From positions 1-64,000 of the IMG/VR virus record IMGVR_UViG_3300036851_000360: a stretch of 64,000 nucleotides of DNA; one strand, given 5' to 3'. Within the stretch, counting starts at the first letter, position 1. Each line of letters starts with the position of its first letter. Shown in pieces: positions 10,730 through 30,410 of this stretch. The notes under the pieces are model-generated. The model saw only the letters and a program-made list of their open reading frames with translations, was not told the origin of the DNA and made no database searches. Source of the DNA: a virus. The translations under genes and the position numbers were made by a program.

Positions 10730-13700
10730 GTGACATCTCCCGGTGGGCGCGAGGTCGGCCGCGTCAGTATTCGCGTGCTGCCGGACACGGCCGGATTCCG
10801 GCAGCGCCTGCAGCGTGCCCTCGACGCAGCTGAGTCCGGGCTCGAGGTCGAGATCCCTGTCGAGTTCGACGTCGACCCAAACGAGCTCAAGGCCAAGCTT
10901 GCGGCGATCCAGGCGAGAGTGACGGTCCCAGTCGACCTGGAGCCGGACATCCCGAAGCTGCGCGCCCAGCTCGCAGCGCTGGACAACTCGCGGATCACGA
11001 TCCCAGTCGAGCTTGAGCTGCGCGACACGGCGCGGCTCAACGCTGTTCTTGCGAGGCTGAACAACCGGGCGATCCGGATCAACGTCCGGCTCAACGGCGT
11101 GAGCCAGGCGATCGCCCGCCTCACCGCGTTGGACGCGATCGTGCGTCGGCTCGACGGCCGCAACATCAGCATCAACATCGACGTCGACGCGGGAGCCGCG
11201 ATCGCGCAGATTGCCGCGATCGAGGCTGCGCTGGTCGGGGTGCGCGCGTCGCTGGGATCCGTCGGTACGTCGGGCAGTCAGTCCTTCAGCCGCATGGGCA
11301 GCGCCATCACGGCCGCCGTTGCTGCGGCGCTGCTGCTGCCGCCGATCGCCGCCGCCATCGCGGTGGCCGGGGCTGGGATCACCGCCGCCTGGGGCGCGAT
11401 CTCTACCGCGATCGTTGCGATCCCGCCCGCGATCTTGCTGCTGGCTGGCCCGATCGCGGCGGTGATAGCCGGCCTCGACGGGATCAAGGCCGCCGCGAAG
11501 ACGATCAAGCCCGAGTTCGACGCGATGCAGAAGGCGGTATCCGCCACCTTCGAGCAACGCATGATCCCGATCTTCGAGCGGCTGACGAAGACCTTCCCGC
11601 AGCTGACCAACGGGATGAAGGGGACAGCGATCTCGCTGTCCGACATCGCACTGCGGCTGACCGAAATGGTCACCTCAGCCGAGGGACTGACCCGGATCGA
11701 CCTAGTCTTCGCCAACATCAACCGGACGCTGGGCGACCTGTCGCCCGGCATCTCCGCGCTCGTCGACTCGTTCTTGATCCTCGGCTCCCAGGCTTCGATC
11801 TTCGACGTGCTCTCCGGCACGATCAACACGTTCGCCCAATCGTTCCGGCAGATGGTCATCGACGTCAGCGGCGAGGGCGGCGTCCTCGACGCGGCGATGC
11901 GCGGGCTGCAGGGCACGCTGGAGGGACTGGCCCGCGGCTTCGTCGACCTCGTGCGCAACGGCCTGGAGGTCTTCGCGGCCGCCGCGCCGGGCGTGAACGC
12001 GCTGATCGAGGAGATGACCGGCTTCTTCAACCGGTTCGACTGGACCTCGCTCGGGGCGTCGGTCGGCGGGGTGTTCCAGGGCCTCGCGGACGCCATCGCG
12101 GGCGTGCCGACGCAGACGATTCGGGACATCGAGACCGCGTTCGCCGACCTGTCGGCGGTGTTCCAGTCGACCGACTTCCAGGCCGACATTCAGGCCATGA
12201 TCGGCGCTATCCCTGAGGCCATCGGCCTGGTCAGGGACCTGACCGCAGCGTTCGGCGACGTTGGCGCGGGGGTGGCGACCGCGCTCGAAGCCTACGGCCG
12301 GGTCAAGGAGGCCATCGGTCAGGTCGATGAGGCGATCCAGACTGCGCTCCCCGGCTTCGACCTGTTCGGCACGATCATCCGCAACATCCCCGGCGTGAAC
12401 CTGGGGCCGCTCATCGGCGATCTGGCCGCCGGCTACAACGAGGTCACCGGCACCGTCGAGGAAGGCAGCACGAAGGCCGGCGACGCCGCCGCGAAGGGCA
12501 TGACCGACCTCGGCGCGAGGGCCGCGCTTGAGGGTGAGCGGGGCATGTCGCAGGTGCCGGGTGCCACAAAGGCCGGCCTGAAGGGCGTCGCACCCGCCGT
12601 CACGGAGGGGCTGACCCCGGCCGCGCAGGCGCTCGTCACCGCGTTCTCCCAGATGCCGCCGGTCGTGCAGGAGGGATTCGCCAGCCTCGCCCCGGCTGCG
12701 GCAGCAGGCATGGCCGTGCTGTCCGCCGCCATCACCGACGGCGGCGCCGACATGCAGGCGTCGCTCTCATCGAGCTTCGGCATCCTGGCCACCACCGCCA
12801 CCGACGGCATGACCACGATCTCGACCGCGATCACCGGTGGCGCGCCCCAGTGGAGCCTGGCCGTCGGCACGGCGATGCAGCAGGTCCAGCTGGTGTTCAA
12901 CACGTCGTTCAGTCAGATGGCCACCATCGCCGAGCAGGGCATGATCGGCGTGCAGACGGCGATGACGTCGGGGACGGCTGGCTGGTCGCTCGCGATCGGC
13001 CTCGCCATGCAAGCCGTGATGCTGGTGTTCACCACCTCGTTCTCGCAGTTCGCCACCATCGCCGAGCAGGGCATGATCGGCGTCCAGACGGCGATGACCA
13101 CCGGAACCGCGGGCTGGAGCCTGGCCGTCGGCCTCGCGATGCAGGCCGTGATGCTTGTACTCACCACCTCGTTCAGCCAGTTCGGGGTGATCGCCGAGCA
13201 GGGCATGATCGGCGTGCAGACCGCGATGACAGCCGGCACCGCAGGCTGGTCGCTAGCGGTCGGCGTCGCCATGCAGGGCGTCATGCTCGTGCTGACCACG
13301 AGCTTCTCGCAGATGGCGACGATCGCCACCGCAGGCATGCTCACGGTCCAGACCGCGATCACAGCCGGTGTCGCGCTCTGGGCCACCGCCTTGGCCACCG
13401 GGATGCTGCAACTGCACACCGTTGTGTCCAACGGCTTCCTGCAGATGGCTGCTATTGCCACCAACGGGATGGCGCTGTTCGCCGCGGCGATCAACATCGG
13501 GTTCGCCGGAGTCATCGCATCGGTCAACGCCGGCATGCTGCTGATCGTCGCCGCGGTGACCGTGGGGTTCGCGCAGATCGTCGCGGCCGTCACCGCTGGC
13601 ATGGCGCAGGTCGCGGCGGCGCTGCAACTGAACTGGGCAGCGGCGATCGCCGCCACCACGGCCGCGATGGCGCAGATGACCTCCGCCGTGCAGGTCGGCA

Positions 13701-14359
13701 TGCAGCAGATCACCACCGCCACCCAGCAGGGCATGCAGCAGGCCACTACTGCTGTCCAGCAGGGCATGCAGCAGATGGTGTCGGCGATCACGACCGGGAT
13801 GAACCAGGCCGTGTCCATTGTGCAGTCGGCGATCTCGAGGATGGTGTCCGCGCTCAACTCGGCCGTCGGCCAGTTCCGCGCCGCCGGCGCCAACATGGGT
13901 CAGGCCTTGGCCGATGGCCTCAACTCGAAGGCCGGGGCAGTCGAGGCGGCCGCCCGCCGACTCGCCAACGCCGCCGCAGCAGCGATGCGCGCGGCAGCGC
14001 AGATCCGCTCACCAAGCCGGATCAGCACCTACTTGGGCGAGATGTGGGGCGCGGGCTTCGTAGGCGGGCTCGACAACTCGGTCTCGGATGTTGAGCGGTC
14101 GGCCCGGGCTCTGGCCGACGCAGTCGTCGACGGTGTCTCCGGTGTGCAAGACGTCCTGGCGGGTGACGCGTGGGCGGCGGACTTCAACGCGAAGGTGAAC
14201 GCCCAGCTCGCCCAGCATGACACCACAGGCACGTCGGGCCAGACCGCGGGGAAGCAGATCGTCATCCAGACGACGATCAACAATCCGCAGGCTGAGCGGG
14301 GCAGCGACTCGATAGCACAGGTGCACCGGCGCCAGGCTGCGATGGGGATATTCGGATGA
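10730..14359 (+). CDS. Tape measure protein
   Basis: 1209 aa, Ala/Gly-rich; N-terminal GREVGRVSIRVLPD; C-terminal IRSPSR motif. Confidence 0.93.
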   Translation: MTSPGGREVGRVSIRVLPDTAGFRQRLQRALDAAESGLEVEIPVEFDVDPNELKAKLAAIQARVTVPVDLEPDIPKLRAQLAALDNSRITIPVELELRDTARLNAVLARLNNRAIRINVRLNGVSQAIARLTALDAIVRRLDGRNISINIDVDAGAAIAQIAAIEAALVGVRASLGSVGTSGSQSFSRMGSAITAAVAAALLLPPIAAAIAVAGAGITAAWGAISTAIVAIPPAILLLAGPIAAVIAGLDGIKAAAKTIKPEFDAMQKAVSATFEQRMIPIFERLTKTFPQLTNGMKGTAISLSDIALRLTEMVTSAEGLTRIDLVFANINRTLGDLSPGISALVDSFLILGSQASIFDVLSGTINTFAQSFRQMVIDVSGEGGVLDAAMRGLQGTLEGLARGFVDLVRNGLEVFAAAAPGVNALIEEMTGFFNRFDWTSLGASVGGVFQGLADAIAGVPTQTIRDIETAFADLSAVFQSTDFQADIQAMIGAIPEAIGLVRDLTAAFGDVGAGVATALEAYGRVKEAIGQVDEAIQTALPGFDLFGTIIRNIPGVNLGPLIGDLAAGYNEVTGTVEEGSTKAGDAAAKGMTDLGARAALEGERGMSQVPGATKAGLKGVAPAVTEGLTPAAQALVTAFSQMPPVVQEGFASLAPAAAAGMAVLSAAITDGGADMQASLSSSFGILATTATDGMTTISTAITGGAPQWSLAVGTAMQQVQLVFNTSFSQMATIAEQGMIGVQTAMTSGTAGWSLAIGLAMQAVMLVFTTSFSQFATIAEQGMIGVQTAMTTGTAGWSLAVGLAMQAVMLVLTTSFSQFGVIAEQGMIGVQTAMTAGTAGWSLAVGVAMQGVMLVLTTSFSQMATIATAGMLTVQTAITAGVALWATALATGMLQLHTVVSNGFLQMAAIATNGMALFAAAINIGFAGVIASVNAGMLLIVAAVTVGFAQIVAAVTAGMAQVAAALQLNWAAAIAATTAAMAQMTSAVQVGMQQITTATQQGMQQATTAVQQGMQQMVSAITTGMNQAVSIVQSAISRMVSALNSAVGQFRAAGANMGQALADGLNSKAGAVEAAARRLANAAAAAMRAAAQIRSPSRISTYLGEMWGAGFVGGLDNSVSDVERSARALADAVVDGVSGVQDVLAGDAWAADFNAKVNAQLAQHDTTGTSGQTAGKQIVIQTTINNPQAERGSDSIAQVHRRQAAMGIFG
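12851..13510 (+). repeat. 132-bp (44-aa) tandem repeats inside the tape measure gene
   Basis: WSLA-type units start at 12851, 12983, 13115 and 13247, with a degenerate fifth at 13379. Confidence 0.85.
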
Positions 14360-15707: not shown

Positions 15708-16997
15708 GTGGTCAACAGGTACTCGCCGCGGACGCCGGCCTGGGTGGACGGGCCGCAAGGGTTGGTGTTCGCGGCCGACGCGAACCGCTGGGAGCAGGGC
15801 ATCGAGGCGCTCGACAACGCCCTCGACGCCGCCGAGGGTCGGCTGGACGCGCTGCAGGCCGCGCTCGGAGGCATCACCGCCACCGGTGTCCCGGTAGTCA
15901 CTACCGCCACTCGCGGCACGCCCACCAAGGGCCGGATCGTCTTCGACGACGACCTGGATCAGTACATCGGCGGGACCGGGACTGCATGGATCGAACTCAG
16001 CGTCGGCGAGGAGGTCCCCGGCCCCGGTTCCGGGACCGCACCGACCGGGCTGACCGCGGTCACCCAGCCGGACAACTCGATCGTCGTGAGCTGGAACCCG
16101 GTGGTGGGTGCGACCCACTACAAGCTGTACGAGATCCGCTCCCCGGGCGGCGTCTCGGGCGCGGACAACATCACCACGACCTCGACCACGCGCACCCCTA
16201 GCTCGATGGGCAACTACGAGTACTGGGTGACCGCCTTTGTCGGCGGCGTGGAGTCGGCGCAGTCCAACCACGGGCTCTGCGTGCTGCCCTACAGCACCGG
16301 CGGCGGCGGTGGAGGTGGTTCCGGCAGCACGCCGGCGCAGCTGCTCGCGCTCGGATCGACCGGCGGCAAGTGGAACCTAGGTGTCGGTTACCCGTCCGGG
16401 CACGTCGACATCGCACCGTCCACGTTGGAGGGCGGCTGGACGGAAGCCCCGTACTTCTACGTCAATGAGGCCGGGACCAAGGTCCACTTCCAGGTCCCGA
16501 TGAACGGCGGGCGCACGAGCTCCAATACGAAATATCCCCGGTGCGAGCTGCGCGAGTACATCGGTAGCTCCAAGGCGGCGTGGTCCGGGTCGTCCGGAAC
16601 GCATGTGATGTCCGGGCGGACCACCGTCCTGCACATGGAGTCCGGCAAGCCGGAGATGGTCGTCGCGCAGATGCACGACGGGTCGGATGACACCCTGCAG
16701 ATCCGGGTCGAGGGCACGACGTGGCGCGCGTCGATCAACGGCACCGAGCACTCCACCACGCTGGGCACGTTCTCGACGGGCACCGAGGTGGCGTGGGAGA
16801 TCCGGGTGGTCAACGGCACACTCACGATCAAGATCAACGGCACCACGAAGATCACAACCAACCCAGGATACGGCTCAGGGCAGTACTTCAAGGTGGGCTG
16901 CTACGCACAGCAGAACAACACCTCCGATGGCGGCGGCAACCCCGACAACGGGTACGCGTCCTGCGAACTGCGGGACCTCGTAGTTACGCACAGCTGA
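15708..16997 (+). CDS. Tail-associated protein: coiled coil + FN3 + PL7 (alginate lyase-type) domain
   Basis: APTGLTAV...VSWNPV...YKLY (FN3); PRCELRE, AQMH and YFKVGCYAQ match the three PL7 motifs. Confidence 0.8.
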   Translation: MVNRYSPRTPAWVDGPQGLVFAADANRWEQGIEALDNALDAAEGRLDALQAALGGITATGVPVVTTATRGTPTKGRIVFDDDLDQYIGGTGTAWIELSVGEEVPGPGSGTAPTGLTAVTQPDNSIVVSWNPVVGATHYKLYEIRSPGGVSGADNITTTSTTRTPSSMGNYEYWVTAFVGGVESAQSNHGLCVLPYSTGGGGGGGSGSTPAQLLALGSTGGKWNLGVGYPSGHVDIAPSTLEGGWTEAPYFYVNEAGTKVHFQVPMNGGRTSSNTKYPRCELREYIGSSKAAWSGSSGTHVMSGRTTVLHMESGKPEMVVAQMHDGSDDTLQIRVEGTTWRASINGTEHSTTLGTFSTGTEVAWEIRVVNGTLTIKINGTTKITTNPGYGSGQYFKVGCYAQQNNTSDGGGNPDNGYASCELRDLVVTHS

Positions 16998-19900
16998 TGG
17001 CGACGATCTATGTCTCCACGACCGGAAGCGACGGCAACGCGGGCACGACGCCGGGCTCACCCAAGCTGACCCTCGGCGGTGGGCTGGCCGCCGCGAGCGC
17101 CGGGGACACGGTGCAGGTCGCGTCCGGCACCTATAGCGGCAACTTCATCACCAGCAAGGGCGGATCGTCGGGGAACTTCATCACGATTCGCTCCGAGGTG
17201 AAGCACGGTGCGAAGATCAGTGGCAACGACGGCACCTCGAACGAGTCCGCGGTCGAGATCAACCACGCCTACATCCGCGTCCAGGATTTCGAGATTACCG
17301 GCACGGCCGGGTCGGGCCTCCGGAACGGTGTGATCGTCAACGCGGACAACGTCGAGGTCATCGGCAACCACATCCACACCACCTGCCAGTTTTTGACCGA
17401 AGGGACTTCTTGGCAGGGCGGCGCCGGGATCGACTTCTGGGGCGCGTCGCGGACGAACGTCTTGGTCGACGGCAACCGCATCCACCACATCGGGGCGCCG
17501 GGTAGCACCCAGCAACTGGTGCACGGCCTGTACCCAGCACAGCCGGCGACGAACTGCCGCATCGTCAACAACGTGGTCTACGACTGCGAGGACTACGGCA
17601 TCCAGCCGTACCCGGAGGACGAGGCCACCGGCTGGAAGATCGTCAACAACACGGTGGTCGCGTGTGGGCGCGGCATCCGCACCGGCGACAACACAATCGT
17701 CCGCAACAACATCAGCTACAACAACAAGGCGAACAACTTCGACGTCCGCGGCTCCGGCAGCACCCTGTCGAACAACATCTCGGGCGGCTCCGGCTCATCC
17801 AGCATGTCCGGGGTCACCGTCGCCAACCCGCTGTTCACCAACTACTCGGCCCGGGACCTGACTTTGGCTGCGGGGAGCCCCGCCCTGGACGCGGGCACCG
17901 CCACCGACGCCCCGGCCACCGACGTCGCCGCCACCGCCCGTCCGCAGGGGTCTGCGGTGGATGCTGGTGCCTACGAGAAGCCAGCCGCCGTCGGAGGCGG
18001 GACAGGCGCGCCGTACACGCTCGCGTTCCCCGACGGGACGCCCTACCCGACGATCCCGGCCGGTACGACCGTGGTCAATGTGTCGACGTCGTCGGCCTTG
18101 TCCTCGGCGTTGTCGTCGGCGACCGCCGGGCAGCGGATCGTGCTCGCGGACGGGTCGTACTCGGGCGCGTTCTCGATGTCCGGGCGGGCAGGCACGGCGG
18201 CGGCCGGGATCTCGGTTGAAGCGGCCAACGTCGGCGGTGCGACGTTCGCGACCGGATCGACGTTCCGGGTCACGAACTGCTCGTACGTGACGATCTCGGG
18301 TCTGATGTTCAACTGGCAGGGCGAAGGCGAGACCTTTCAATTCCGTGGCACGTCACACCACTGTCGGCTCACCCGCTCCACGTTCGGCCCGACCACGCAC
18401 GCCGAGTCGTCCGGTGTGCAGACCTGGGTTTTCATCGGGGACGACTGCTACCACATCCGGATTGATCACAACGAGATCCGGAACAAGGGAACGAGCGGCA
18501 ACGGCGTCCGGGTGTACGGCTCGTTCGCGAAGGTCGACGCCGGCCAGGGCTCGAGCGCCGGTTGCCGGTGGGTGCGCATCGACCACAACATCTTCCGGTC
18601 GATCAAGCCTGAGGTGGGCAACGACAAGGAACCGGTGCGCTACGGCGTGTCCACGATGTCGCGGACGATCAGCAACGGCGTCATCGAGCGGAACCGCTTC
18701 GAGGACTGCATCTGTGAACCTGAGGTCATCTCGGTGAAGATGGGCGGCATCCGGACCACCGGTAACACCATCTACCGGTGCGCGGGTGGGCCGGTGATCC
18801 GTCACGGCACCAACTCGGTCATGAGCGATAACTACGTGGTGGACCGGGTTGACACCTTCGGCACCACCATCGGCTCCGGCGGCATCCGGTTCTACGACGC
18901 GGATCACGAGGTTGCCTACAACTACATTGACGGTGTCTTTGGCGGGAACTTCCAAGGCCCGCTGCTGCTGGACACCGGCGACGCCGAGGGCTCGAGCACG
19001 AACCTGTCCGGGCACTGGCGGGTCATCGGCGCCGACGTGCAGCGGAACGTGATCGTCGACTGCCCCGAGGGCATCCGGATCGGCGATAACTATTCGTCGG
19101 TGCCACGGGACTGCCGGATCCAACACAATCTCGTGGTCGATGCCGACTCCGGCGCCGCCATCACCCAGCGGGTCGCTCCGTCTAACACGGTGCTGGACGG
19201 AACGAACGTCTACTACGCCACCACGACCGCGGCGGGGATGACCCAAGACGCGGACACGATCTGGCGCAAGCCGGGATTCGGACCCCGGCTGACCTACCTG
19301 GAGCAGGCCGACGTCGGCCCGGCCGGGGACCTCGGGGACACCGACGGAACCGGTGTTGAGGCGGGCGGTATCGCCGCCGACCCGGCCGACATCCTGAACA
19401 TCGGGGCCGACGAGGGCCAGAACCATTTCCAGCTGCAGTACGCCCTCGACGGCAGCACCGGCAACGACATCACCATCACACAGTTCGACGACGTCGCTGC
19501 CGGGTTCACCGCCGACCCGTACTTCAAGGTCGTCACGAACCTCGATGGCGCACCTGCGGTGCAGTTCCGGGTGCGGGCGGACGCGGCCACTACGACAGGT
19601 TCGTCGACACCGCGCTCGGAGCTACGGGAGACCCGCGCCGACGGCACCGAGATGGCGTTCGACGCCATGCACGGCGACCATTCGCTGCGCACTCGGGTCC
19701 GGATCACCCACCTGCCAGCGGGTGACCCCGAGGTCGTCGTGGCGCAACTGCACAACGGCGTCACCGGGGACCGGATCGCGATCCGCACACAGCTGGTGTC
19801 CAGCCAGATCAAGTTGCTGTGCCGGATCAACGGCACCCAGGTGGATCCCCGGTTCGACGAGTCCTACGCGGTGGGCGACGAATTCGAGGTCTTCGTCAAG

Positions 19901-20986
19901 GTGCTGGACGGTGGGCTTGTCGAGGTCTACTACAACGGCGTCACCGAGCCCACGGTCACCGGCCAGCTGGCCGCGAGCGGAGCGGGCGCCTCCTGGTACT
20001 GGAAGCTGGGGGCATACGCGCAGTTCGACGAGACCACCACGTCGGCCACCGAGTACGTGTCGGTCGAGCACCGCGACCTGCAAGTCACCCATGGCGGCGG
20101 CCGGGTGGACGCAGGCGCGGACGCGCAGGTGATCACGGGGCAGGCATTCACTCGGCTGGCGCAGGAGCTCGGTCTCACCGGGGTCACGGCCCGCCGTTGG
20201 ACGATCGTGTCTCGGCCGCTGCCGCCCGACCCGGAACCCGACCCGGGTCCGGGCGACCCGGGGGACATGACGATCGCCGCGGTCCGGCACGGCTGGGGCA
20301 CTCCGCACGCGTTGTCCGACGAGTTCGACTACACCGGCCCGCCGAACTCGACGAAGTGGAAGCTGCCCGGCGCGGACTGGGCCGGGCACAACGGCAACGG
20401 TCGTCGCCGCCCGGAACGGCAGACCGTCGCCGACGGGAAGTTCGTCATGACCGGGCTGCAGAACGGCGACACGGGGTGGTGTCAACATCGGCTGGACGTG
20501 CAGTACGGCCGCTGGGAGGCGCGGGTTCGGAGCTTCGCCGGGGCCCCGTCCGCGGGCGAACCGGACTCCACGTCGAACGGCAACGACTATCACCCGCTGC
20601 TGCTGCTGTGGCCGCAAAGCAACTCCCGTCAAACCGATGGCGAATATGACTGGATGGAAAACGGGGCGCCAGGCGAAAACACGCTTGAGGCGTTCATCCA
20701 CTACCCGCATCCAGGCACGAGCGTGGTTCAGCAGGAGCACTTCGAGCGGCCCAACAGCAGCCTGAGCCAGTTCCACAACATCGCCATGGAGTGGACCTCT
20801 CAGCACATCAAGGGCTTCTTCGACGGCGTGGAGTGGTTCTCCGTGAGCGGGGGTGCGAACAGCGTGCGACGCAACATCCAAACCATGCCCGCGGGTCACG
20901 CGGTGATACAGCTCGACGACTTCGACGGCACCAATCAGACGCCAGCAACGATCGAGCTCGAATGGTTCCGTTATTACAGTCTGTGA
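16997..20986 (+). CDS. Multi-module depolymerase: beta-helix + PL6 (chondroitinase B-like) + PL7 + half PKD + GH16
   Basis: TGATG start; YVSTTGSDGNAGT beta-helix; EPEVISVK and IRHG (PL6); PRSELRE, AQLH, YWKLGAYAQ (PL7); EYDWME (GH16 ExDxxE). Confidence 0.85.
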   Translation: MATIYVSTTGSDGNAGTTPGSPKLTLGGGLAAASAGDTVQVASGTYSGNFITSKGGSSGNFITIRSEVKHGAKISGNDGTSNESAVEINHAYIRVQDFEITGTAGSGLRNGVIVNADNVEVIGNHIHTTCQFLTEGTSWQGGAGIDFWGASRTNVLVDGNRIHHIGAPGSTQQLVHGLYPAQPATNCRIVNNVVYDCEDYGIQPYPEDEATGWKIVNNTVVACGRGIRTGDNTIVRNNISYNNKANNFDVRGSGSTLSNNISGGSGSSSMSGVTVANPLFTNYSARDLTLAAGSPALDAGTATDAPATDVAATARPQGSAVDAGAYEKPAAVGGGTGAPYTLAFPDGTPYPTIPAGTTVVNVSTSSALSSALSSATAGQRIVLADGSYSGAFSMSGRAGTAAAGISVEAANVGGATFATGSTFRVTNCSYVTISGLMFNWQGEGETFQFRGTSHHCRLTRSTFGPTTHAESSGVQTWVFIGDDCYHIRIDHNEIRNKGTSGNGVRVYGSFAKVDAGQGSSAGCRWVRIDHNIFRSIKPEVGNDKEPVRYGVSTMSRTISNGVIERNRFEDCICEPEVISVKMGGIRTTGNTIYRCAGGPVIRHGTNSVMSDNYVVDRVDTFGTTIGSGGIRFYDADHEVAYNYIDGVFGGNFQGPLLLDTGDAEGSSTNLSGHWRVIGADVQRNVIVDCPEGIRIGDNYSSVPRDCRIQHNLVVDADSGAAITQRVAPSNTVLDGTNVYYATTTAAGMTQDADTIWRKPGFGPRLTYLEQADVGPAGDLGDTDGTGVEAGGIAADPADILNIGADEGQNHFQLQYALDGSTGNDITITQFDDVAAGFTADPYFKVVTNLDGAPAVQFRVRADAATTTGSSTPRSELRETRADGTEMAFDAMHGDHSLRTRVRITHLPAGDPEVVVAQLHNGVTGDRIAIRTQLVSSQIKLLCRINGTQVDPRFDESYAVGDEFEVFVKVLDGGLVEVYYNGVTEPTVTGQLAASGAGASWYWKLGAYAQFDETTTSATEYVSVEHRDLQVTHGGGRVDAGADAQVITGQAFTRLAQELGLTGVTARRWTIVSRPLPPDPEPDPGPGDPGDMTIAAVRHGWGTPHALSDEFDYTGPPNSTKWKLPGADWAGHNGNGRRRPERQTVADGKFVMTGLQNGDTGWCQHRLDVQYGRWEARVRSFAGAPSAGEPDSTSNGNDYHPLLLLWPQSNSRQTDGEYDWMENGAPGENTLEAFIHYPHPGTSVVQQEHFERPNSSLSQFHNIAMEWTSQHIKGFFDGVEWFSVSGGANSVRRNIQTMPAGHAVIQLDDFDGTNQTPATIELEWFRYYSL

Positions 20987-23900
20987 TTGGCGGGAGTCAA
21001 CGGCGATGAGGCAGCTGTTGTGACCGGCCCGATCGATAGCGACGCCGAACTCAACTGGGTCGCCCCGACCACCACCGGCACCTACGTCATCCGCTACGCG
21101 GTCGACGCGAACGAGGGCACGTTCAGCGACGACGTAGTCGTCACGGTGGTGGACGCCCCAACCGGCCCGCAGACGGTTCACCTGGACTCGATCCCATCCC
21201 GGGCGGCCATCGGCGAACCCACCATCGTCATCGACCAGCCGGCTGGCGCGACCCCGACCATGCTCGGCGTCAACACCGTCCTGGGCGAGACATTCTTCCT
21301 GGGCTACAACCCCCAAGTCCCGACCGGCCCGCAGACCGTCCACCTGGACTCGATCCCATCCCGGGCGATCGTCGGCGAGCCGACGGTCACGGTGCGCCCG
21401 GCGCCACTGCCGGTCGTCGTCAACCTGGACTCGATCCCGTCGCGGCTGCGGATCGGTGCCCCGTCGGTGACGGTTGGGAACGCCCCACCGGACCAGCCGA
21501 TCACCGACCTGACCCTCTCGCTGTTCGCGATCGACCCGGCCACCGGGTACGGGATCCCGCTCCCGGATTTCGAGTCCCTCACGCTGTCGCCGTTGCGGAA
21601 CTCCGGCGGCTCGATCAGCCTGGACTACCCGGAGGACGGCGAGAACTTCGCGGTCCTGCGAGCCGCGATCACCAACGGCCGCGACGTCGAGGTCGAGATC
21701 TGGGTGTCCGGCACCTCCCGCGGTGCCCTGCGCGGCTATCTACAGGAAGCCCAGGGCGACGACACGGCCGAGGACGGCGCGTGGACGTTCGCCGGCGGCT
21801 TCCTCGGGTTGCGCATGGACGAGGCGTGGATCCGCCCGCAGGAACAGGGCCCGCTCGTCCCCGATGACGACGACAACCCGGACAACGACCAGCACGCCAA
21901 CGAGAAGCGTGAACTGATCTTCAACGCGTCGACCGCGGGTACCGTGATGGCCACGGCCATGACCCAGGCCCACACCCGCAACGCACTGAGCGACATCGTC
22001 TGGGACTTCACCGCCACCCACGACTCCGACGGCACCCCCTGGCCACAGGTGATCACCACCCGGTTCAGCCCGGGCGCCAGCTACAAGCAGCTACTGGATC
22101 GGCTGGTCACCCTCGGACTCGCCGAGTGGGACGTGCAGTGGAGCGGCGCCCACCGGGTACTGAGGATGTGGGTGCCGGAGGGCCGGGGCACCGACCTGTC
22201 CGACGACGCGGTACCGGTGGTACTGCAGCACGGGCAGAACATCCTGGACGCCCCCCGACGCTGGTCGGTGCGCGAGGCCGGCACGACGGTGATGGTGGCC
22301 GGCGCGGACGGCCTCTACGACGAGGCATCGGACGCGACCGCGCTCACCCGCCGGGGTCGGCGGATCGAGCGGTTCGTGTCGGCGAACAACCTGGCCGACG
22401 CGGGCGCGGTCACCGCTTACGCGCTCAACCAGCTCCCACTGGTCACCACCGGGCTGCACGAGGTCACGCACGGGATCGGGTTCCTGTCCGGCTCGCCACG
22501 GCCGATCGTCACCTACGACGTCGGGGACTGGGTGCTGTCCGAGTCCGGGGACACCCAGGAACGGTTGCGGGTGGTGCAGTGGACGTTGACCGTCGACAAC
22601 GATGGGGGCCTGTCCGGGACGGTCACACTCAACGACACCGTCACCGACGCCCTGGTGCGGTTGCAGGCCCGCCTGGACGCCATCACCTCCGGTGAGACGG
22701 TCGTCGGCACGAGCGAGCCGTCGTCGGGGAACCTGTCGGACATCACCCCGCCCGCCGCGCCGGAGGGCCTGGTCGTCTCCTCGATCGCCTACCAGGACCC
22801 GGCGCACACCAACACCCTCGCGTCGGTCACGGTGGGCTGGCTGCCGGTCGTCACCAACGCCGACGGTTCGAACTACCCGCAAGTCCAGGCCGCGCGCTAC
22901 CTCCTGCTTCAGATGGAGGATCTGGAGAACAACCCGCCGGACCCCGACGATCCCGACGACGACAGGATGATCGACCAGGACACCTGGACCTGGGCGGACT
23001 GTCCCCAGGTGGTCCAGGACTACGCGGGGGTGCTGCGCCAGGAGTGGGTCGCTGACGGCAGCCCGGCGGGCGTGGAGACGTGGCTGCAGTCCTACGTCGC
23101 CGAGTTCTCCGCCACCCCGACGGCGACCGACGACGTGGCTGGCTACAAGGTGCGCTACGCCTACCTCGGCCTGGATCAGGTCGGCGGGATCCCGAGTTCG
23201 GACCCGTTCCCTGACGACGACCGGGTCTACTACGAGGCCACCCCGTCGAACGGCATCTCGGGCACGTCGTGGACGTTCGGCGGGGTCGAGGCCGGCGCGA
23301 ACCTGCGCATCGAGGTGCAGGCGTTCGACCGGTCCAGCAACCACGGGCCGTGGGCGTCGATCGGGCACGACACCGCCATCGACGACACCCCGCCGCCCCG
23401 CCCCGGACCGCCCGGGATCACGGCGTCGTTCCGCGGGGTGCACATCACCTGGGACGGGCTCGGCCAGATCGGCGAGCCGATGCCGATGGACTTCGACCAC
23501 GTCGAGGTGTGGATTAGCCAGTCTGCGGACTTCTCCACGGCAGCGTCCACGGCTGGGTTGGCTACCGCGTTCGACCCGTTGAACCCGAACCCGCAGCATG
23601 TCGGGGACCTGTTCGCGGCCGGGACTCATCCGGTGCAGGACATGCTGTACGAGGTCGGCTACTACGCGGCTCTGCGGGCGGTGGACCGGTCGGGGAACGT
23701 GTCGCTGATGTCGGCGGCCGGCGGGCCAGCCACGGCGGAGAAGCTGTTCTCCGACGACCTGCGCGATCAGATCATCAACGACTCCTCGATGATCGCCGCG
23801 CAGACCATCGGCACGTTGCATGTTGTCGACGGTGCGATCATCACCGCGAAGATCGCCGATCTTGCGGTGAACAACGCGAAGATCGCCGACCTCGAGGTGG

Positions 23901-24904
23901 GCAAACTCCGCTCCGGGACGATGATCGCGCAAGTCACGATCGCCGGGAAGTTCCGCACCCACGAGTCCGACGCCGCGAACCGGGTCGAGTTCGACGCCGC
24001 AGGGCTGCGGCTCTACCGCGGCTCGACCGTCGTTGGGTCGTGGAACGTCACCGACGGATCCATGCTGATCACGGGAACGTGGCGCACCGGGCTGACCGGG
24101 GAACGCGCCGAGGGCCACCCGGACGGCTCGGTCCGCTGGTACCCCCAGTCCGGGTCTAACTACTCCCAGATAGCGAACTTCGGCAACGACGTCGTGTGGC
24201 GCGGCCCTCTCGACACAGCCGGCCGCTCCGGGCGGATCAATGTCAACGCCCTTGGTGTCGGGTTGAACTTCTCCGCCGAGTCGGAGATCCCCAGCAACCT
24301 CCGCGCAGAGATCGCCGTGTTCGACCGCCGGGCCCGCATCACCAGCCCATTCGCAGCGTTCGAGGTGAACGGGAAGCTGGACAACCCCGCCGGCGGGCCA
24401 CGCCGGTTCCAGTTCTCCCAAACCTCCGCGTCCGGGACGACGCTGCCGTACTCATACCTGTCGTACATGGCCTCCTCCTCGTCAGGTCGGGGCGGGTTCT
24501 GGGGTAACGGCGCTGGCATCAAGATGGAGGCCGGTCAGGTTCTGGTCACCGGCGACGAGCTCGACGGGTTCGGCGTCATCAAGGCGAACGAGTTCGCGGT
24601 CGCCTCCAGCGCGCAGATCAAACGCGACATCGTGGACGTCGACGACGAGGCGGTTCCGCTTGACCCGGAGCAGGTGTTCCGTGACGCCCCGGCGGTGCAG
24701 TTCAACTACGTCGACGACGCCCCCGATGTGCCGCCGCGGCTGGGTGTGCTCGCCGAGCAGATGCCGGAACTGATGCGACACGTCGGCCCTGACGGCAAGG
24801 GCGGTGTGGTCCTGTCAGTTGGGGTGACGAGCCAGCTCGCCCTCCAACACGCGGCGCTCCGCCGCATCATCGCCCGCCTGGACGCCCTGGAAGGAAGCCT
24901 GTGA
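20987..24904 (+). CDS. Large minor tail / tail-tip protein with FN3 domains and C-terminal S74-like chaperone (start may be GTG 21020)
   Basis: Hub-like region (YDVGDWV), FN3-like AFDRSSN and AVDRSGN, ITAKIADL repeats, SSAQIKRDI...LGVLAEQ autochaperone-like end. Confidence 0.78.
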   Translation: MAGVNGDEAAVVTGPIDSDAELNWVAPTTTGTYVIRYAVDANEGTFSDDVVVTVVDAPTGPQTVHLDSIPSRAAIGEPTIVIDQPAGATPTMLGVNTVLGETFFLGYNPQVPTGPQTVHLDSIPSRAIVGEPTVTVRPAPLPVVVNLDSIPSRLRIGAPSVTVGNAPPDQPITDLTLSLFAIDPATGYGIPLPDFESLTLSPLRNSGGSISLDYPEDGENFAVLRAAITNGRDVEVEIWVSGTSRGALRGYLQEAQGDDTAEDGAWTFAGGFLGLRMDEAWIRPQEQGPLVPDDDDNPDNDQHANEKRELIFNASTAGTVMATAMTQAHTRNALSDIVWDFTATHDSDGTPWPQVITTRFSPGASYKQLLDRLVTLGLAEWDVQWSGAHRVLRMWVPEGRGTDLSDDAVPVVLQHGQNILDAPRRWSVREAGTTVMVAGADGLYDEASDATALTRRGRRIERFVSANNLADAGAVTAYALNQLPLVTTGLHEVTHGIGFLSGSPRPIVTYDVGDWVLSESGDTQERLRVVQWTLTVDNDGGLSGTVTLNDTVTDALVRLQARLDAITSGETVVGTSEPSSGNLSDITPPAAPEGLVVSSIAYQDPAHTNTLASVTVGWLPVVTNADGSNYPQVQAARYLLLQMEDLENNPPDPDDPDDDRMIDQDTWTWADCPQVVQDYAGVLRQEWVADGSPAGVETWLQSYVAEFSATPTATDDVAGYKVRYAYLGLDQVGGIPSSDPFPDDDRVYYEATPSNGISGTSWTFGGVEAGANLRIEVQAFDRSSNHGPWASIGHDTAIDDTPPPRPGPPGITASFRGVHITWDGLGQIGEPMPMDFDHVEVWISQSADFSTAASTAGLATAFDPLNPNPQHVGDLFAAGTHPVQDMLYEVGYYAALRAVDRSGNVSLMSAAGGPATAEKLFSDDLRDQIINDSSMIAAQTIGTLHVVDGAIITAKIADLAVNNAKIADLEVGKLRSGTMIAQVTIAGKFRTHESDAANRVEFDAAGLRLYRGSTVVGSWNVTDGSMLITGTWRTGLTGERAEGHPDGSVRWYPQSGSNYSQIANFGNDVVWRGPLDTAGRSGRINVNALGVGLNFSAESEIPSNLRAEIAVFDRRARITSPFAAFEVNGKLDNPAGGPRRFQFSQTSASGTTLPYSYLSYMASSSSGRGGFWGNGAGIKMEAGQVLVTGDELDGFGVIKANEFAVASSAQIKRDIVDVDDEAVPLDPEQVFRDAPAVQFNYVDDAPDVPPRLGVLAEQMPELMRHVGPDGKGGVVLSVGVTSQLALQHAALRRIIARLDALEGSL
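21161..21475 (+). repeat. Three near-identical TVHLDSIPSR..IGEPT linker repeats
   Basis: acctggactcgatccc recurs at about 21180, 21342 and 21423. Confidence 0.8.
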
Positions 24905-25055: not shown

Positions 25056-27230
25056 GTGCCGACTTCGTTCCCCACGTTCGTTGACACCCCGGAAGGGGAA
25101 GAGCCGGAGCCGGGCACCCCAGACGCCGACGCCGCCTACCTGAACAGCGTCAACGTCGCGATCAACACGCTCGAGAACACGCTGCCCGGCAAGGTCGACG
25201 CTGGCACTCTCGCCACGGTAGCCAGCTCCGGCGCCTACACCGACCTGATCGGTTCACCGTTCATCCCGACCGCGCCGAGCCACATCGGCGCGCAGCCGGC
25301 CGGCACCTACGTGGTGCCCGGCGATCTGGCGGCGTACGCCCCGGTCGCACACACCCACGCCGCGCCGAACAAGGTCCCCGTGGGCAGCATCAACGCCACC
25401 GGCACCCCCACTGCCTCGACGTTCCTGCGTGGTGACGGCACCTGGTCGCCGCCCCCACCGGACATCAGCGGCGGGATCAGCGGCGCGGTTGGCGACGGAG
25501 TCGTCGACGACACCGTCGCGATCAATGCTGCGCTCACGGCCGCCCGCACCGGTGGTGGCGGTCTGGTGAAAGGCGCCCCCGGCAGCACCTACCTGATCAA
25601 CGCGCCGTTGGTCATCGGGTCGAACACCGTGCTGGATATGACCGGCTGCCGGGTGGTGCTCGACCCGGCGGTGACCCAGTCCAACATGCTGAACAACCGT
25701 GCGGTCTCCACGTCGAACCGCACGGTCACCGACGGCGCGATCGCCGCCGCCGCGAACATCCTGGTGTCCGCTGCGGCCGCTTGGACGTCGGCCGACATCG
25801 GCCGCAGCGTGCACATCCCCGGCGCTGGCTGGGAGCTGCACGGCGGGGACGAGACCCCGGTCTGCGCCACGATCCTCTCAGTGTCGGGCACGGACGCCGA
25901 GCTGGACACCGTTGCCGGTACGACCGTTGTCGGCGCCACGGTGACCATCTACAACCGCGACGAGAACATCTTGGTGACCGGCGGTACCTGGGACGCGGGG
26001 GCCAACGAAGGCGGCGCCGACAACACCGGGCGACACATCCTGCGATTCCGCCGCATCGACGACCTGACGGTGCGGGACCTTCGGGTCGAGTGCACCGGCG
26101 GGAAGTACGCGATCACCCCCGGCGACTGCAACCGCGTGAAGATCACCGACTGCTCGTTCGACACCAGCTCCGACGGCATCCACTTCCACGGCCCGGCACG
26201 TGGCATCACGATCCGCGGGATCACCGGCGTCATGGGCGACGACTCGGTCGCGATCGGCACCGACGACATCCCGCAATATCAGGACGTCGCCGGGCCCATC
26301 AGCGAAGTGGTCATTGAAGACGTCGACTGCGTCACCGACATCAACATCGTGAAGATCTACACCCGGATCGGGATCGACCTGAACAACATCACGATCCGCA
26401 ACATCCGCGGGCGGAGCCTCGGCGAGTTCACCGGCATCACCCTTGTCGACGGGACCATGGACAACATCCTGGTCGACGGCGTGAACATCACCGGCCCGGC
26501 GGGCGGCATCTTCCGCTCGGTGATGCTGGCCTGCTCGAGCTCGAAGGCCACCGTCCGCAACGTCGTGTCTAGCGGCGGGTTCCTGTGCCAGGTCGTCACC
26601 GGGTTCACCGTCGACTCCCTGCTCGTGCAGGGCGCGGTGCACAGCTCACCCACCAGTGGCGATCACATGGTCGTCATCGATGGTTCCGTCGGCCACCTGT
26701 CGGTCTCCGACTTCTCCTGCACGCTCCCCGCCAGTGCGTCTCTCGTCCGCATGACCAACGGGGCCAGCATCGGCGCCGCCTACATCTCCGACGGTGTCCT
26801 CACCGGCGTCACCCACGGCTCGTTCCTCGACGCGCAGGTGTCATCCGGCACCCTCGGGCGGGCCGTGCTCCGCGGGCTCCGGGGCAGCAGCATTGCGTTT
26901 GGGTTCGCCACCAGCATCTCCGGGGAGGTGAACCTGTCGGACGTCGACCTGTCCGCAGCGATCGGACTGGTGTACGTGGCGGGCGGCAACCTAGTGATCC
27001 GCAACGGGCAGGGCATCACCGGAACGGCTACAGCCAGCTTCCGCGATGCCGGCACTCTCGCTGTCCGGGCCCCCGACTTCCCCATCGATCTCGACCTGGC
27101 CAACAGCCGATCCGCCGGCGACCGGGCCTTCAACGTCGACGCTGGCCTGTCCTGCGGTGTCGGCCCGGTGGTGTTCAACGGGACCGCCTGGGTGAACGTC
27201 GCCTCCGGCGCCACGTACACGCCGGCCTGA
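25056..27230 (+). CDS. Tailspike with pectin-lyase-like right-handed beta-helix
   Basis: Fibre-like N-terminus (LATVASSGAYTDL, FLRGDGTW); GAVGDGVVDDTVAINAAL; SDGIH...GDDSVAI (GH28-like). Confidence 0.78.
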   Translation: MPTSFPTFVDTPEGEEPEPGTPDADAAYLNSVNVAINTLENTLPGKVDAGTLATVASSGAYTDLIGSPFIPTAPSHIGAQPAGTYVVPGDLAAYAPVAHTHAAPNKVPVGSINATGTPTASTFLRGDGTWSPPPPDISGGISGAVGDGVVDDTVAINAALTAARTGGGGLVKGAPGSTYLINAPLVIGSNTVLDMTGCRVVLDPAVTQSNMLNNRAVSTSNRTVTDGAIAAAANILVSAAAAWTSADIGRSVHIPGAGWELHGGDETPVCATILSVSGTDAELDTVAGTTVVGATVTIYNRDENILVTGGTWDAGANEGGADNTGRHILRFRRIDDLTVRDLRVECTGGKYAITPGDCNRVKITDCSFDTSSDGIHFHGPARGITIRGITGVMGDDSVAIGTDDIPQYQDVAGPISEVVIEDVDCVTDINIVKIYTRIGIDLNNITIRNIRGRSLGEFTGITLVDGTMDNILVDGVNITGPAGGIFRSVMLACSSSKATVRNVVSSGGFLCQVVTGFTVDSLLVQGAVHSSPTSGDHMVVIDGSVGHLSVSDFSCTLPASASLVRMTNGASIGAAYISDGVLTGVTHGSFLDAQVSSGTLGRAVLRGLRGSSIAFGFATSISGEVNLSDVDLSAAIGLVYVAGGNLVIRNGQGITGTATASFRDAGTLAVRAPDFPIDLDLANSRSAGDRAFNVDAGLSCGVGPVVFNGTAWVNVASGATYTPA

Positions 27231-29067: not shown

Positions 29068-29766
29068 TTGAAGAAGATCGTCGTACCCGCTGCTGCCCTC
29101 GCGCTGTCTCTTATGACAGTTGGCGCGGGCCTGGCGCAGGCGGCGGAGCCGGCCAACTGCGCCGACGCCATAACCGCTCTCCAGCGCGCCGACTCGGACC
29201 ACCGCGCTGCTGTCGCCGCGGACGACAAGGCCGCCGCGGCGGAGAAGGCCGTCGACGACCTCGAGCGGGCAGAGGATCGGCTCGCGGACGCCGAGCGGGA
29301 TCTGGCGGCTGCGCGGGACACGCTCACGCGGGCCAAGGACCGTCTCGCCGATCTGAAGAAGCCCGGCGATGGCCCTGACGACAACACCACTCAGGAGCCG
29401 GGTGAGACCATCGGGAGCGAGCAGCAGATCGCCGACGCGCAGTCCGCTGTCGACGCCGCGGAGGACAAGGTCGATGACCTCACCGTCGTGCGCAACGACC
29501 GCCTGGAGGAGCGCAACGACGCTGTCGATCTGGAGAACGACGGCGACGCCGACGACCTGCAGGACGAGGCCGACAAGACCGACGCCGCCGCGCTGAAGAA
29601 GGCGGTCGACGAGGCGCGGGACGACTTCAACCGGATCTGCATCGACGAGGACGACCCCACCGACGACGTCACTACGACGCCCGCCACCCCGACGCCGGCG
29701 CCTGACGTGGACGTCACCGTCGTGACCCCCCGCGGGGGCGTGGCCACCGGCGGCGGTCCTGCGTGA
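29068..29766 (+). CDS. Secreted coiled-coil protein with class F sortase-type sorting motif
   Basis: Sec signal ending AQA-A; two Cys; Pro/Thr linker; C-terminal PRGGVATGGG; coupled to the sortase gene. Confidence 0.72.
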   Translation: MKKIVVPAAALALSLMTVGAGLAQAAEPANCADAITALQRADSDHRAAVAADDKAAAAEKAVDDLERAEDRLADAERDLAAARDTLTRAKDRLADLKKPGDGPDDNTTQEPGETIGSEQQIADAQSAVDAAEDKVDDLTVVRNDRLEERNDAVDLENDGDADDLQDEADKTDAAALKKAVDEARDDFNRICIDEDDPTDDVTTTPATPTPAPDVDVTVVTPRGGVATGGGPA

Positions 29767-30410
29767 CCCAACGCCTCCTGTTCAGCGCGGCCCTCGGCGC
29801 CATTCTGGCCGGGGCCGCGCTGGTCGCCTGCACGACCACGGCCCAGGTGGTGGAGGATCTGCCGTCGGGTGGTGCGGCTGCAAGCTCGGTGCAGGCACCT
29901 GAGTTCGTTGAGGTTGCGGAGCCGACGGCGATCCGGATCCCGAAGATCGGGGCCAGTTCGGAGCTCGACGAGCTCGGGTTGAACGCCGACGGGTCCCTGC
30001 AGGTGCCGCCCGTTACGGATCCGTTGACCGCTGGCTACTACGCCGGCGCAAAGCCGGATGAGTCCGGGGACGAGGTCTTGCCTGGCGAGCTGGGCGCGGC
30101 GGTGGTCGCGGCTCATGTCGACGGCGTGATCAACGGGAAGAAGGGCCAGCCCGGGTTGTTCTTCCGGCTGCACCAGCTTGAGCCCGGCGACGAGATCTTC
30201 ATCGATCAGGCCGATGGCGGTCAGCTGCGGTTCCTCGTCGACCGCGTCGAAACCCACAGCAAGGACCGCTTCCCCTCCGACGCAGTCTATGGACCGACTG
30301 AGCGGCCAGAGCTGCGGCTCGTGACCTGCGGCGGATCGTTCTCGAGGACGTCAGGACATTACCTCTCCAACGTCATCGCGTTCGCGACCCTGGCGCCCGA
30401 GCAGCAGTGA
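29763..30410 (+). CDS. Class F sortase
   Basis: IRIPKIG, LQVPP, VAAHVD (His), FFRLHQLEPGDEI, LRLVTCGG (Cys), YLSNVI; possible LVAC lipobox. Confidence 0.9.
   Translation: MTQRLLFSAALGAILAGAALVACTTTAQVVEDLPSGGAAASSVQAPEFVEVAEPTAIRIPKIGASSELDELGLNADGSLQVPPVTDPLTAGYYAGAKPDESGDEVLPGELGAAVVAAHVDGVINGKKGQPGLFFRLHQLEPGDEIFIDQADGGQLRFLVDRVETHSKDRFPSDAVYGPTERPELRLVTCGGSFSRTSGHYLSNVIAFATLAPEQQ

Follow-up and report, generated by a model that had tools for sequence, protein, structure and literature searches.

In chaperone-usher pili, a subunit lacks a single G strand and the neighbouring subunit provides it with its N-terminal extension, and split inteins and the engineered SpyTag/SpyCatcher pair reassemble separately encoded halves in trans. 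In phages, the term 'evolved' Dit or Tal describes tail proteins with carbohydrate-binding modules inserted in their loops. Tailspikes are attached via dedicated N-terminal anchor or adaptor domains, such as CBA120 TSP4-N (PMC8825819). A literature search at the level of titles and the starts of abstracts found no report of phage tail proteins joined through a split PKD or Ig domain.

The window analysed here is a stretch of 64,000 nucleotides; its source is a soil phage. Two successive genes within it each encode what appears to be one half of a PKD-like domain, arranged as follows.

16997..20986, + strand: ORF1, 1329 aa, multi-enzyme depolymerase (ORF calls, domain matches)
N-terminal part of ORF1, + strand: beta-helix region (domain annotation)
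18080-19060, + strand: Chondroitinase_B, ORF1 aa 362-688 (domain annotation)
19424-20092, + strand: Alginate_lyase2/PL7, ORF1 aa 810-1032 (domain annotation)
20105..20218, + strand: first half of the PKD-like domain (half 1), ORF1 aa 1037-1074, with strands A-C predicted (63% identity to P0091 202-238)
20219..20266, + strand: Pro/Asp-rich linker (LPPDPEPDPGPGDPGD), variable in length and sequence among homologues (sequence)
20267..20983, + strand: GH16-like jelly-roll module with the motif E-Y-D-W-M-E (profile, fold of a homologue, invariant residues)
20984..20986, + strand: TGA stop of ORF1 (also in the Logan contig; stop kept at 7/7 related junctions)
20987..21019, + strand: in-frame spacer of 33 nt, with GAGG at 21008-21011, 8 nt upstream of the ORF2 start (sequence)
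21020..24904, + strand: ORF2, 1294 aa, Tal-like tail-tip protein (conserved start, predicted hub fold)
21023..21160, + strand: second half of the PKD-like domain (half 2), ORF2 aa 2-47, with strands E-G predicted (48% identity to P0091 245-285)
within ORF2, + strand: PTGPQ/IPSRA repeats
21515-22708, + strand: gp27/VgrG-like hub, ORF2 about aa 166-563 (fold search)
within ORF2, + strand: fibre region
24494-24871, + strand: C-terminal part resembling a tail-fibre chaperone region, ORF2 aa 1159-1284 (match to 6f45)

We propose, with a probability of roughly 0.6, that these two genes are coupled and that their products dock through fragment complementation of the PKD-like domain. ORF1 and ORF2 would be translated sequentially as separate genes and jointly encode one discontinuous beta-sandwich, to which the ORF1 depolymerase would contribute the first three strands together with the flexible linker and GH16 that come after them, and the Tal-like tip hub/fibre protein ORF2 would contribute the last strands as its N-terminal residues. 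After synthesis the halves would interdigitate via the B-E, C-F and A-G pairs, and the rebuilt domain would tether the depolymerase, without a covalent bond, to the N-terminal arm of ORF2, with GH16 hanging from the loop at which the chain is cut. If the halves do bind, as comparison and modelling suggest, ORF1 would be a virion protein.

Such a joint would resemble donor-strand complementation in that an incomplete Ig-like fold is completed by another polypeptide to give a highly stable non-covalent connection. It would differ in its setting, a phage tail rather than a pilus, and in that the domain is cut near the middle (about 38 + 45 residues) with three strand pairs crossing the interface. 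The locus was accordingly not assigned to the chaperone-usher donor-strand class, ORF2 2-47 being predicted to supply at least three strands versus a single strand in that class. The split inteins and SpyTag/SpyCatcher offer a parallel in the use of reassembling halves as plug and socket, whereas the joint predicted here involves neither splicing nor isopeptide chemistry. As in 'evolved' Dit and Tal proteins, a glycan-active jelly-roll would sit in a tail-tip loop, and P0026 and P0027, the fused relatives, are built in this way (the CBM2 of the phage J-1 Dit, 5ly8, was among the fold matches of the cis model of P0027); in the window, however, the insertion point doubles as a gene boundary. The halves appear to belong to the sequence family of the PKD-like linkers PF22352 and PF00801, which is shared with P0091, P0096 and P0100 and forms tandem arrays in many large proteins, but the linker domains of glycan enzymes and tail proteins are continuous. 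Finally, as with CBA120 TSP4-N (PMC8825819), a depolymerase would be hung on the tail by a small docking module that accommodates exchangeable enzymes, although there whole domains bind to one another's surfaces, whereas in the window one domain would be split between the partners.

Comparison of the two halves with related proteins showed that, at the level of sequence, they are homologous to one intact domain and colinear with its two parts. In P0091, a related tail protein, half 1 matched residues 202-238 (63% identity, E 4e-10) and half 2 (ORF2 2-45) matched residues 245-285 (48% identity, E 1e-8), with a gap of 6 residues between them, and the uninterrupted P0091 domain (205-282) covers positions 2-84 of the 84 positions of Pfam K319L-like_PKD. 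Half 1 alone gave no Pfam match, and half 2 alone aligned with positions 49-84 of 84 of PF22352 with E 0.04 and 14.4 bits, under the 27-bit cut-off. The intact relatives scored 24.7 bits against PF00801 (P0096; cut-off 23.5) and 21.6 bits against PF22352 (P0091; cut-off 27). Profile HMMs specific for each half placed the halves side by side in P0091, P0096 (twice) and P0100, and detected 66 such pairs among 148 proteins from a search of representatives. Eleven positions of half 1 were invariant among 16 homologues and fourteen of half 2 among 17, including the core positions W1068 in half 1 and W13, Y22 and Y26 in half 2. A preliminary description of this DNA had placed the two halves of a PKD-like domain on either side of GH16 and a stop codon; this arrangement was confirmed.

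In ORF1, half 1 (VDAGADAQV...RRWTIVSRP) is preceded by PL7 and followed by the Pro/Asp linker and by GH16, which runs to the stop. P0028, a protein already on record, has the same length, 1329 aa, and is 100% identical to ORF1 over the searched region (aa 960-1329). The GH16 module of the window scored 17 bits in Pfam, under the 22-bit cut-off, and that of its homologue P0027 scored 42.7 bits; the module in the P0027 model superimposed on 9xkt_A with Z 22.6 and rmsd 3.0 over 214 aligned residues. The GH16 catalytic motif is ExDxxE, and E1216, D1218 and E1221 of the window motif E1216-Y-D1218-W-M-E1221 were invariant in 16 sequences. Profile, modelled fold and motif together place the module in GH16, with a predicted enzymatic role. 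In a collection of named phages, neither the DNA of 19500-22500 nor the ORF1 protein found a match, and PHROGs returned nothing for ORF1.

For ORF2, the protein already on record is P0003, which has 1294 aa, the same start and 100% identity over the first 260 residues searched. In Foldseek, residues 150-640 resembled the baseplate hubs Mu gp44, T4 gp27 and VgrG and the tail tips of 80alpha, Douge and Bxb1, with E values of 4.6e-14 to 1e-8 and a probability of 1.00 for the Mu, T4, 80alpha, Douge, Bxb1 and T6SS VgrG matches, showing that the predicted structure has a hub fold. The tape measure gene lies upstream at 10730-14359, and by its modelled fold and its position downstream of that gene ORF2 is a Tal or baseplate hub protein. 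Between ORF2 and the gene following the tape measure there are three ORFs rather than one. Matches to ORF2 in the named phage collection were limited to distant 'minor tail protein' entries, and PHROGs gave one weak tail-fibre match only.

Analysis of the gene boundary indicated that ORF2 has its own start. A single TGA at 20984-20986 (+) separates ORF1 (16721/16997..20986) from the ORF2 frame (20987..24904), with which it shares a frame. A Logan contig of 39,250 bp and depth 28 showed 0 differences from the window over 20500-21500; it is a separate assembly whose run is possibly the source sample and hence not an independent sample, and its identity argues that the stop is not an error of a single assembly. 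Upstream DNA was present at seven distinct loci (the window, L002, L005, L011=L017, L012, L010 and L013), and in all seven the ORF bearing half 2 was directly preceded by an ORF ending in GH16; seven further pairs of ORF1-like and ORF2-like proteins come from contigs of equal length and probably also share a contig. At these junctions (n = 7) the two ORFs were in frame in two, one of which (L002) has two consecutive stops, a tandem TAG TGA; they overlapped in ATGA (L005) or GTGA (L011 and L012) in three; and the remaining two had a short spacer and another frame, with a GGAGG-type site before GTG. Runs X2, X6 and X7 yielded only diverged GH16 pieces, uninformative on the junction. The spacer at 20987..21019 was different or missing in relatives. 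From GTG 21020, ORF2 reads (M)TGPIDSDAELNWVAPTTTGTYVIRYAVDANEGTFSDDVVVTVVD, and a start of the form M-T[GST]PID was conserved among relatives (M-TGPID in the window), which by this comparison shows that ORF2 initiates at a site of its own. Among the long structural genes of the window, all eight that were checked terminate in TGA, and the RNA after the stop has no unusual structure (bases 20975-21075, -33.1 kcal/mol versus -32.5 for shuffles, z -0.17). The same-frame ORFs divided by one TGA and the GAGG-8nt-GTG start at 21020 thus stand as first described, and the possibility that the TGA might be a sequencing error or a private nonsense mutation is made unlikely by the identical Logan contig and by the stop at every related junction.

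The alignments further showed that the split itself is conserved. Half 1 occurred alone in 20 entries, corresponding to 19 distinct ORF1-like proteins (P0001 duplicates P0032), of which 15 end in GH16 and two in GH16 with an added PF14099 lyase; in P0105 the chain ends 3 residues past half 1 with no GH16. Half 2 occurred alone in 20 of 23 ORF2 matches, within the first 9 residues in 17 and behind a 217-aa N-domain in three; upstream of these N-domain relatives lies an ORF with half 1 and GH16 (L010, directly upstream) or, at the truncated L013, at least a GH16 end. Two natural single-chain forms keep both halves, with an insert of 255 aa in P0027 and of 487 aa in P0026. The content between the halves was therefore nothing, GH16, or GH16 plus the lyase, and the halves persist in 39/39 distinct split and 2/2 fused members across at least six architectures. 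The split recurs in relatives that are 60-85% identical, and also in a pair without any GH16, P0105 with P0022, which may be adjacent at one locus, as their contigs are equal in length; this distribution does not support the view that the split is a recent or private scar of GH16 capture, although a past capture at the split site may still have occurred. By sequence clustering the split family forms a single narrow clade, which collapsed at 50% to one full-length representative and a 61-aa piece starting with half 2 that is likely a fragment. The proteins recovered in a search of the 50% representatives were for the most part generic ones with several PKD domains; another split lineage was not among them, which is weak as evidence of absence.

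Structure prediction was consistent with docking in trans. Co-folding of ORF1 (residues 1025-1329, GH16 included) with ORF2 scored 0.62, a mark that 116 of 157 solved complexes and two of 215 mismatched pairs attain, although split halves of a known fold such as PKD may pass via their likeness to solved structures; the best of three controls scored 0.00. The runs had at least 49% of contacts in common, with a low partner pLDDT of about 51-52. The confident interface comprised ORF1 1035-1076 and ORF2 2-47 only, with zero GH16 residues, and the predicted pairings (antiparallel for ORF1 1066-1070 with ORF2 23-28 and for 1051-1054 with 10-13, parallel for 1042-1044 with 40-42) fit the canonical B-E, C-F and A-G pairs of one beta-sandwich. 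In an AF2 cis model of fused P0027 the halves were confident (pLDDT blocks of 87-92 and 74-91) and both linkers, including the equivalent of the Pro/Asp linker, were below 50; confidence and strand pattern in that model suggest contact between the halves. A structural search with the cis model returned only jelly-roll (GH16) matches, over residues 50-285. The earlier proposal that the halves complement in trans is thus favoured by both comparison and a controlled co-fold.

The best surviving alternative is that the halves are a non-binding evolutionary remnant of a PKD linker cut by fission or insertion, such that ORF1 is free or otherwise attached and half 2 is a mere leader. Selection on the halves was weaker than on GH16 (dN/dS 0.09-0.36): in half 1, dN/dS was 0.32-0.42 in four of six pairs and about 1 in two, and in half 2 it was 0.22-0.56 in eight of ten pairs and 0.91 and 1.17 in two, each being a short, noisy region, and the pairs near 1 are what a remnant would give. 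The young and narrow family also fits a remnant, as do P0045-P0056, in which GH16 is joined directly to the tail protein with neither half, and P0002, with GH16 on a Tal-like protein and no halves; P0045-P0056 indicate that the clasp is dispensable for having this enzyme on a Tal. Nevertheless, we consider a remnant unlikely, because every split and fused member retains the halves across all those architectures, because P0105 keeps half 1 even though it is there a bare tail at the C-terminus, which a simple deletion would remove, and because W1068, W13, Y22 and Y26 are invariant and the co-fold interface is limited to the halves with controls at 0.00.

A second alternative, which we regard as improbable, is that half 2 pairs elsewhere, with itself inside the trimer of Tal or with some other tail protein, and that half 1 packs on the PL7 or GH16 of ORF1. 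Tal proteins of the gp27-like hub family are trimers, half 2 is not terminal in the three N-domain relatives, and the real-pair co-fold was confined to ORF1 and ORF2, all of which leave room for another partner. However, GH16 was available in the co-fold and contributed nothing to the confident interface, the N-domain relatives still have half 1 and GH16, or a GH16 end, upstream, and the strand pairings match a single canonical sandwich. Recoding, by TGA readthrough in the window (giving the 2635-aa protein first envisaged) or by frameshifting in relatives, with some fusion of ORF1 and ORF2 folding the domain in cis, draws on the common frame and single TGA and on P0026 and P0027, natural single chains that imply a fusion is viable, but is very hard to credit, since the in-frame layout is not conserved (2/7, about chance level, one with tandem stops), TGA ends the eight neighbouring structural genes checked, in E. 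coli a T placed directly after the stop, as here, makes termination strong, no stimulatory RNA structure follows (z -0.17), and ORF2 has a ribosome-binding site and a conserved start.

Returning to docking through a shared domain, the free ends at the split may serve as a landing site for modules (GH16, the PF14099 lyase and the 217-aa N-domain), and overlapping stop and start codons may help the halves to meet during synthesis. We give about even odds to the broader idea that a PKD-like domain cut in its C-C' loop acts both as an enzyme-mounting plug and as a hotspot for module gain, loss and re-fusion, with the overlaps aiding assembly during co-synthesis.

For annotation, these results caution that in-frame ORFs flanked by half domains need not imply readthrough or sequencing error. 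How phages mount exchangeable depolymerases on their tails determines which hosts they infect and makes an engineering target, and the halves may represent a natural plug-and-socket pair of about 40 + 45 residues. Known joints use whole adaptor domains, so a single small domain common to two products would, if true, be a new docking mode, and it would account for the mobile gene boundaries and enzyme modules found at this spot in one lineage.

The window covers the initial 64 kb of a viral contig of 72,180 bp (G+C ~68%), and re-checking it showed all coordinates in the preliminary description to be correct, including the shared frame of two long ORFs with one TGA between them. The relevant features are as follows.

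16997-20986, plus strand: ORF1, the upstream gene, a multi-enzyme depolymerase of 1329 aa, same frame as the next ORF
ORF1 aa 362-688, plus strand: Chondroitinase_B domain match
ORF1 aa 810-1032, plus strand: Alginate_lyase2 domain match
20105-20218 (ORF1 aa 1037-1074), plus strand: half 1 of a PKD-like domain, VDAGADAQV...RRWTIVSRP, flanked by lyase and GH16 and followed by a Pro/Asp linker
Close to the C-terminal end of ORF1, plus strand: GH16, weak match
20984-20986, plus strand: TGA stop, the single codon dividing ORF1 from the next ORF
21020, plus strand: GTG start of ORF2, the downstream gene, GAGG 8 nt ahead; the protein begins (M)TGPIDSDAELNWVAPTTTGTYVIRYAVDANEGTFSDDVVVTVVD

Sequence comparison indicated that half 1 and half 2, the latter opening ORF2, are the two halves of one domain that related tail proteins (P0091, P0096 and P0100) have uninterrupted, bearing out the earlier claim of a split PKD-like domain. 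The intact stretch of P0091 (202-285; VDAGADASV...SRAWTIVSGP-SGAGST-LATTAALSWTPTAAGTYVLRYTA...DDVQVTVT) covered positions 2-84 of 84 of Pfam K319L-like_PKD, and P0096 reached the PKD gathering score. Half 1 matched P0091 202-238 (63% identity, E 4e-10) and half 2 matched 245-285 (48% identity, E 1e-8); therefore, the cut sits in one loop. By itself, half 2 matched the C-terminal portion of the K319L-like_PKD profile (positions 49-84 of 84, E 0.04), and half 1 had no Pfam match. HMMs built separately from each half adjoined in P0091, P0096 (twice) and P0100, and gave 66 adjacent half pairs among 148 proteins from a representative search. The intact domain has ...IVSGP once, and both the end of half 1 (...IVSRP, 20216-20218) and the start of ORF2 ((V/M)TGP, 21023-21031) are similar to it; MAFFT placed VTGPI onto VSGPA. 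The ~3 residues seemingly duplicated on either side of the cut may reflect the way in which the cut or insertion came about.

Structure prediction was applied both to a natural fusion and to the separate chains. An AF2 model of the fused stretch of the relative P0027 (390 aa, 30-row alignment; mean pLDDT 76.8) had 8-9 strands in the two halves together, with pLDDT of 87-92 in half 1, 74-91 in half 2 and below 50 in both linkers. A GH16 jelly roll forms the centre of this model (9xkt_A, Z 22.6, rmsd 3.0, 214 aligned residues), and GH16 structures took up the match list of a structural search. Against 0.00 for the best of three controls, co-folding of ORF1 1025-1329 with ORF2 1-110 scored 0.62, a mark that 116 of 157 solved complexes attained, as did 2 of 215 mismatched pairs, although halves of a known fold may pass through likeness to solved structures. 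At least 49% of contacts agreed between runs, and partner pLDDT was at least 51. The confident interface, ORF1 1035-1076 with ORF2 2-47, was exactly the halves and included no GH16 residues of the modelled segment. The predicted strand pairs, antiparallel for ORF1 1066-1070/ORF2 23-28 and ORF1 1051-1054/ORF2 10-13 and parallel for ORF1 1042-1044/ORF2 40-42, are those of one Ig-like sandwich. The co-folding suggested earlier is in line with one sandwich, which speaks for compatibility of the halves rather than binding.

We propose, with a probability of roughly 0.6 and from computation only, that a PKD-like sandwich clasps the depolymerase to the tail tip. ORF1 and ORF2 would be synthesised as two chains, and three strands of half 1 would interdigitate with those of half 2, fastening the multi-enzyme depolymerase to an arm of the tail-tip trimer, with GH16 dangling on a flexible linker from the cut loop. 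The stop/start overlap in relatives could provide matched amounts, with the halves meeting during synthesis. Trans-complementation, one of three options offered initially, fits the comparison and the predicted interface to this extent.

That the halves are instead a remnant whose binding was lost seems unlikely. Selection on both halves is moderate and noisy: dN/dS was 0.32-0.42 in four of six pairs and ~1 in two for half 1, and 0.22-0.56 in eight of ten pairs for half 2 (0.91 and 1.17 in the others), compared to 0.09-0.36 for GH16. The values near 1 speak for a remnant, and the invariant core residues of each half speak against it. Pairing of either half with another partner is more doubtful still.

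Junctions were read at seven distinct related loci, the window included.

Window: TGA, then 33 nt; same frame as ORF1
L002: TAG TGA, then 27 nt; same frame
L005: ATGA overlap; different frame
L011 (=L017): GTGA overlap; different frame
L012: GTGA overlap; different frame
L010: short spacer with GGAGG-type site, then GTG; different frame
L013: short spacer with GGAGG-type site, then GTG; different frame

The two in-frame junctions of seven equal chance expectation, the M-T[GST]PID start of ORF2 homologues coincides with GTG 21020, and the RNA downstream of the stop had no unusual structure (z -0.17). Therefore, the TGA readthrough first considered is not the conserved mechanism, which is coupled translation of two genes, and recoding to a fusion protein is very improbable. 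A 1294-aa protein starting at GTG 21020 is on record. Sequencing error was likewise addressed: 20500-21500 was without any difference in an independent contig (depth 28; the run is possibly the source sample). TGA terminated all eight long structural genes checked, indicating the standard genetic code.

The split was also suggested to be a scar of recent GH16 capture, and its recurrence in 19 ORF1-like and 20 ORF2-like proteins, also without GH16, argues against a private scar. Half 1 alone was found in 20 entries, or 19 distinct proteins (P0001 duplicates P0032), with GH16 C-terminal in 15 and GH16 plus PF14099 lyase in two. P0105 ends three residues past half 1, without GH16, and P0022, with N-terminus VTGPIDNDAELNW, is probably its neighbour, as both come from contigs of equal length. 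Half 2 stood alone in 20 of 23 ORF2 matches (17 N-terminal, three behind a 217-aa domain), and a GH16-ending ORF lay directly 5' of the half-2 ORF in all seven loci with upstream DNA. Two proteins carry both halves on one natural chain around inserts: P0027 (half 1, GH16, Gly linker, half 2, Tal) and P0026 (half 1, PF14099 lyase, GH16, half 2, Tal). More distant relatives (P0045-P0056, P0002) have GH16 on Tal-like proteins without either half; thus, the halves come and go together. The 217-aa N-terminal domain (MAAP.FVG...) ahead of half 2 in P0009, P0018, P0020, L010 (3826-4491) and L013 had no Pfam match, and a similar domain heads P0096.

ORF2 is a Tal-like tail-tip protein with an N-terminal arm of ~150 aa starting with half 2, as indicated by its hub fold, fibre-tip-like C-terminus and the position of the tape measure gene (10730-14359). 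A model of residues 150-640 (mean pLDDT 74.2) matched baseplate hub proteins, among them Mu gp44, T4 gp27, T6SS VgrG and the 80alpha, Douge and Bxb1 tail tips (Foldseek, E down to 4.6e-14); the C-terminus resembled a tail-fibre tip (6f45, E 3e-4), and homologues contain Peptidase_S74. Three PTGPQTV.LDSIPSRA.(I/V)GEPT repeats, conserved in homologues, follow half 2 (aa ~46-150, 21155-21460). ORF2 is separated by three ORFs from the gene that follows the tape measure, an unusual arrangement in a tail module of siphophage type. The tail region holds glycan-active modules beyond ORF1 (the first three entries below), and the sortase ORF, an odd gene for a phage, is just downstream of ORFs with weak Rz-like spanin matches.

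15708-16997: 429-aa protein, Alginate_lyase2 at its end
25056-27230: pectate-lyase-like tailspike, 724 aa
27256-27966: Laminin_G_3/ConA-like protein
29763-30410: Sortase-domain ORF, 215 aa (PF04203, E 2.4e-16)
35576-39799, minus strand: 1407-aa ORF

The closest relative in the genome collection, L017 (DASPIH010000427.1; P0004, P0029), is a 26.8-kb contig in a Blastococcus sp. MAG, and runs with the window's DNA are soil metagenomes; there are hints of a Geodermatophilaceae-like host.

Donor-strand complementation in pili, which supplies one strand, is alike in working, as are split inteins and engineered split Ig domains. The proposed joint does not belong to these families, since it would supply half a domain and implies no chemistry. 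Known insertions of glycan-binding modules into loops of tail-tip proteins are consistent with the fused relatives. Known tailspike docking is via whole adaptor domains, as reported for CBA120 TSP4-N (PMC8825819). No split PKD or Ig domain that links tail proteins of phages turned up in the literature searched.

Another gene boundary recurs within the region that Pfam assigns to Chondroitinase_B (L002 4684-4860, L016 near 6970); the window and L005 read through it uninterrupted. The L002 ORF1 homologue begins MATFGTTIGSGG, with a TGATG overlap with a different beta-helix gene, and the same start residues occur in L016, P0045, P0046, P0049 and P0054. The free ends at the PKD cut seem to be a landing place for modules, with the chain closed again in two relatives, and fixed seams appear to be where the ORF1/ORF2 lineage shuffles its modules.
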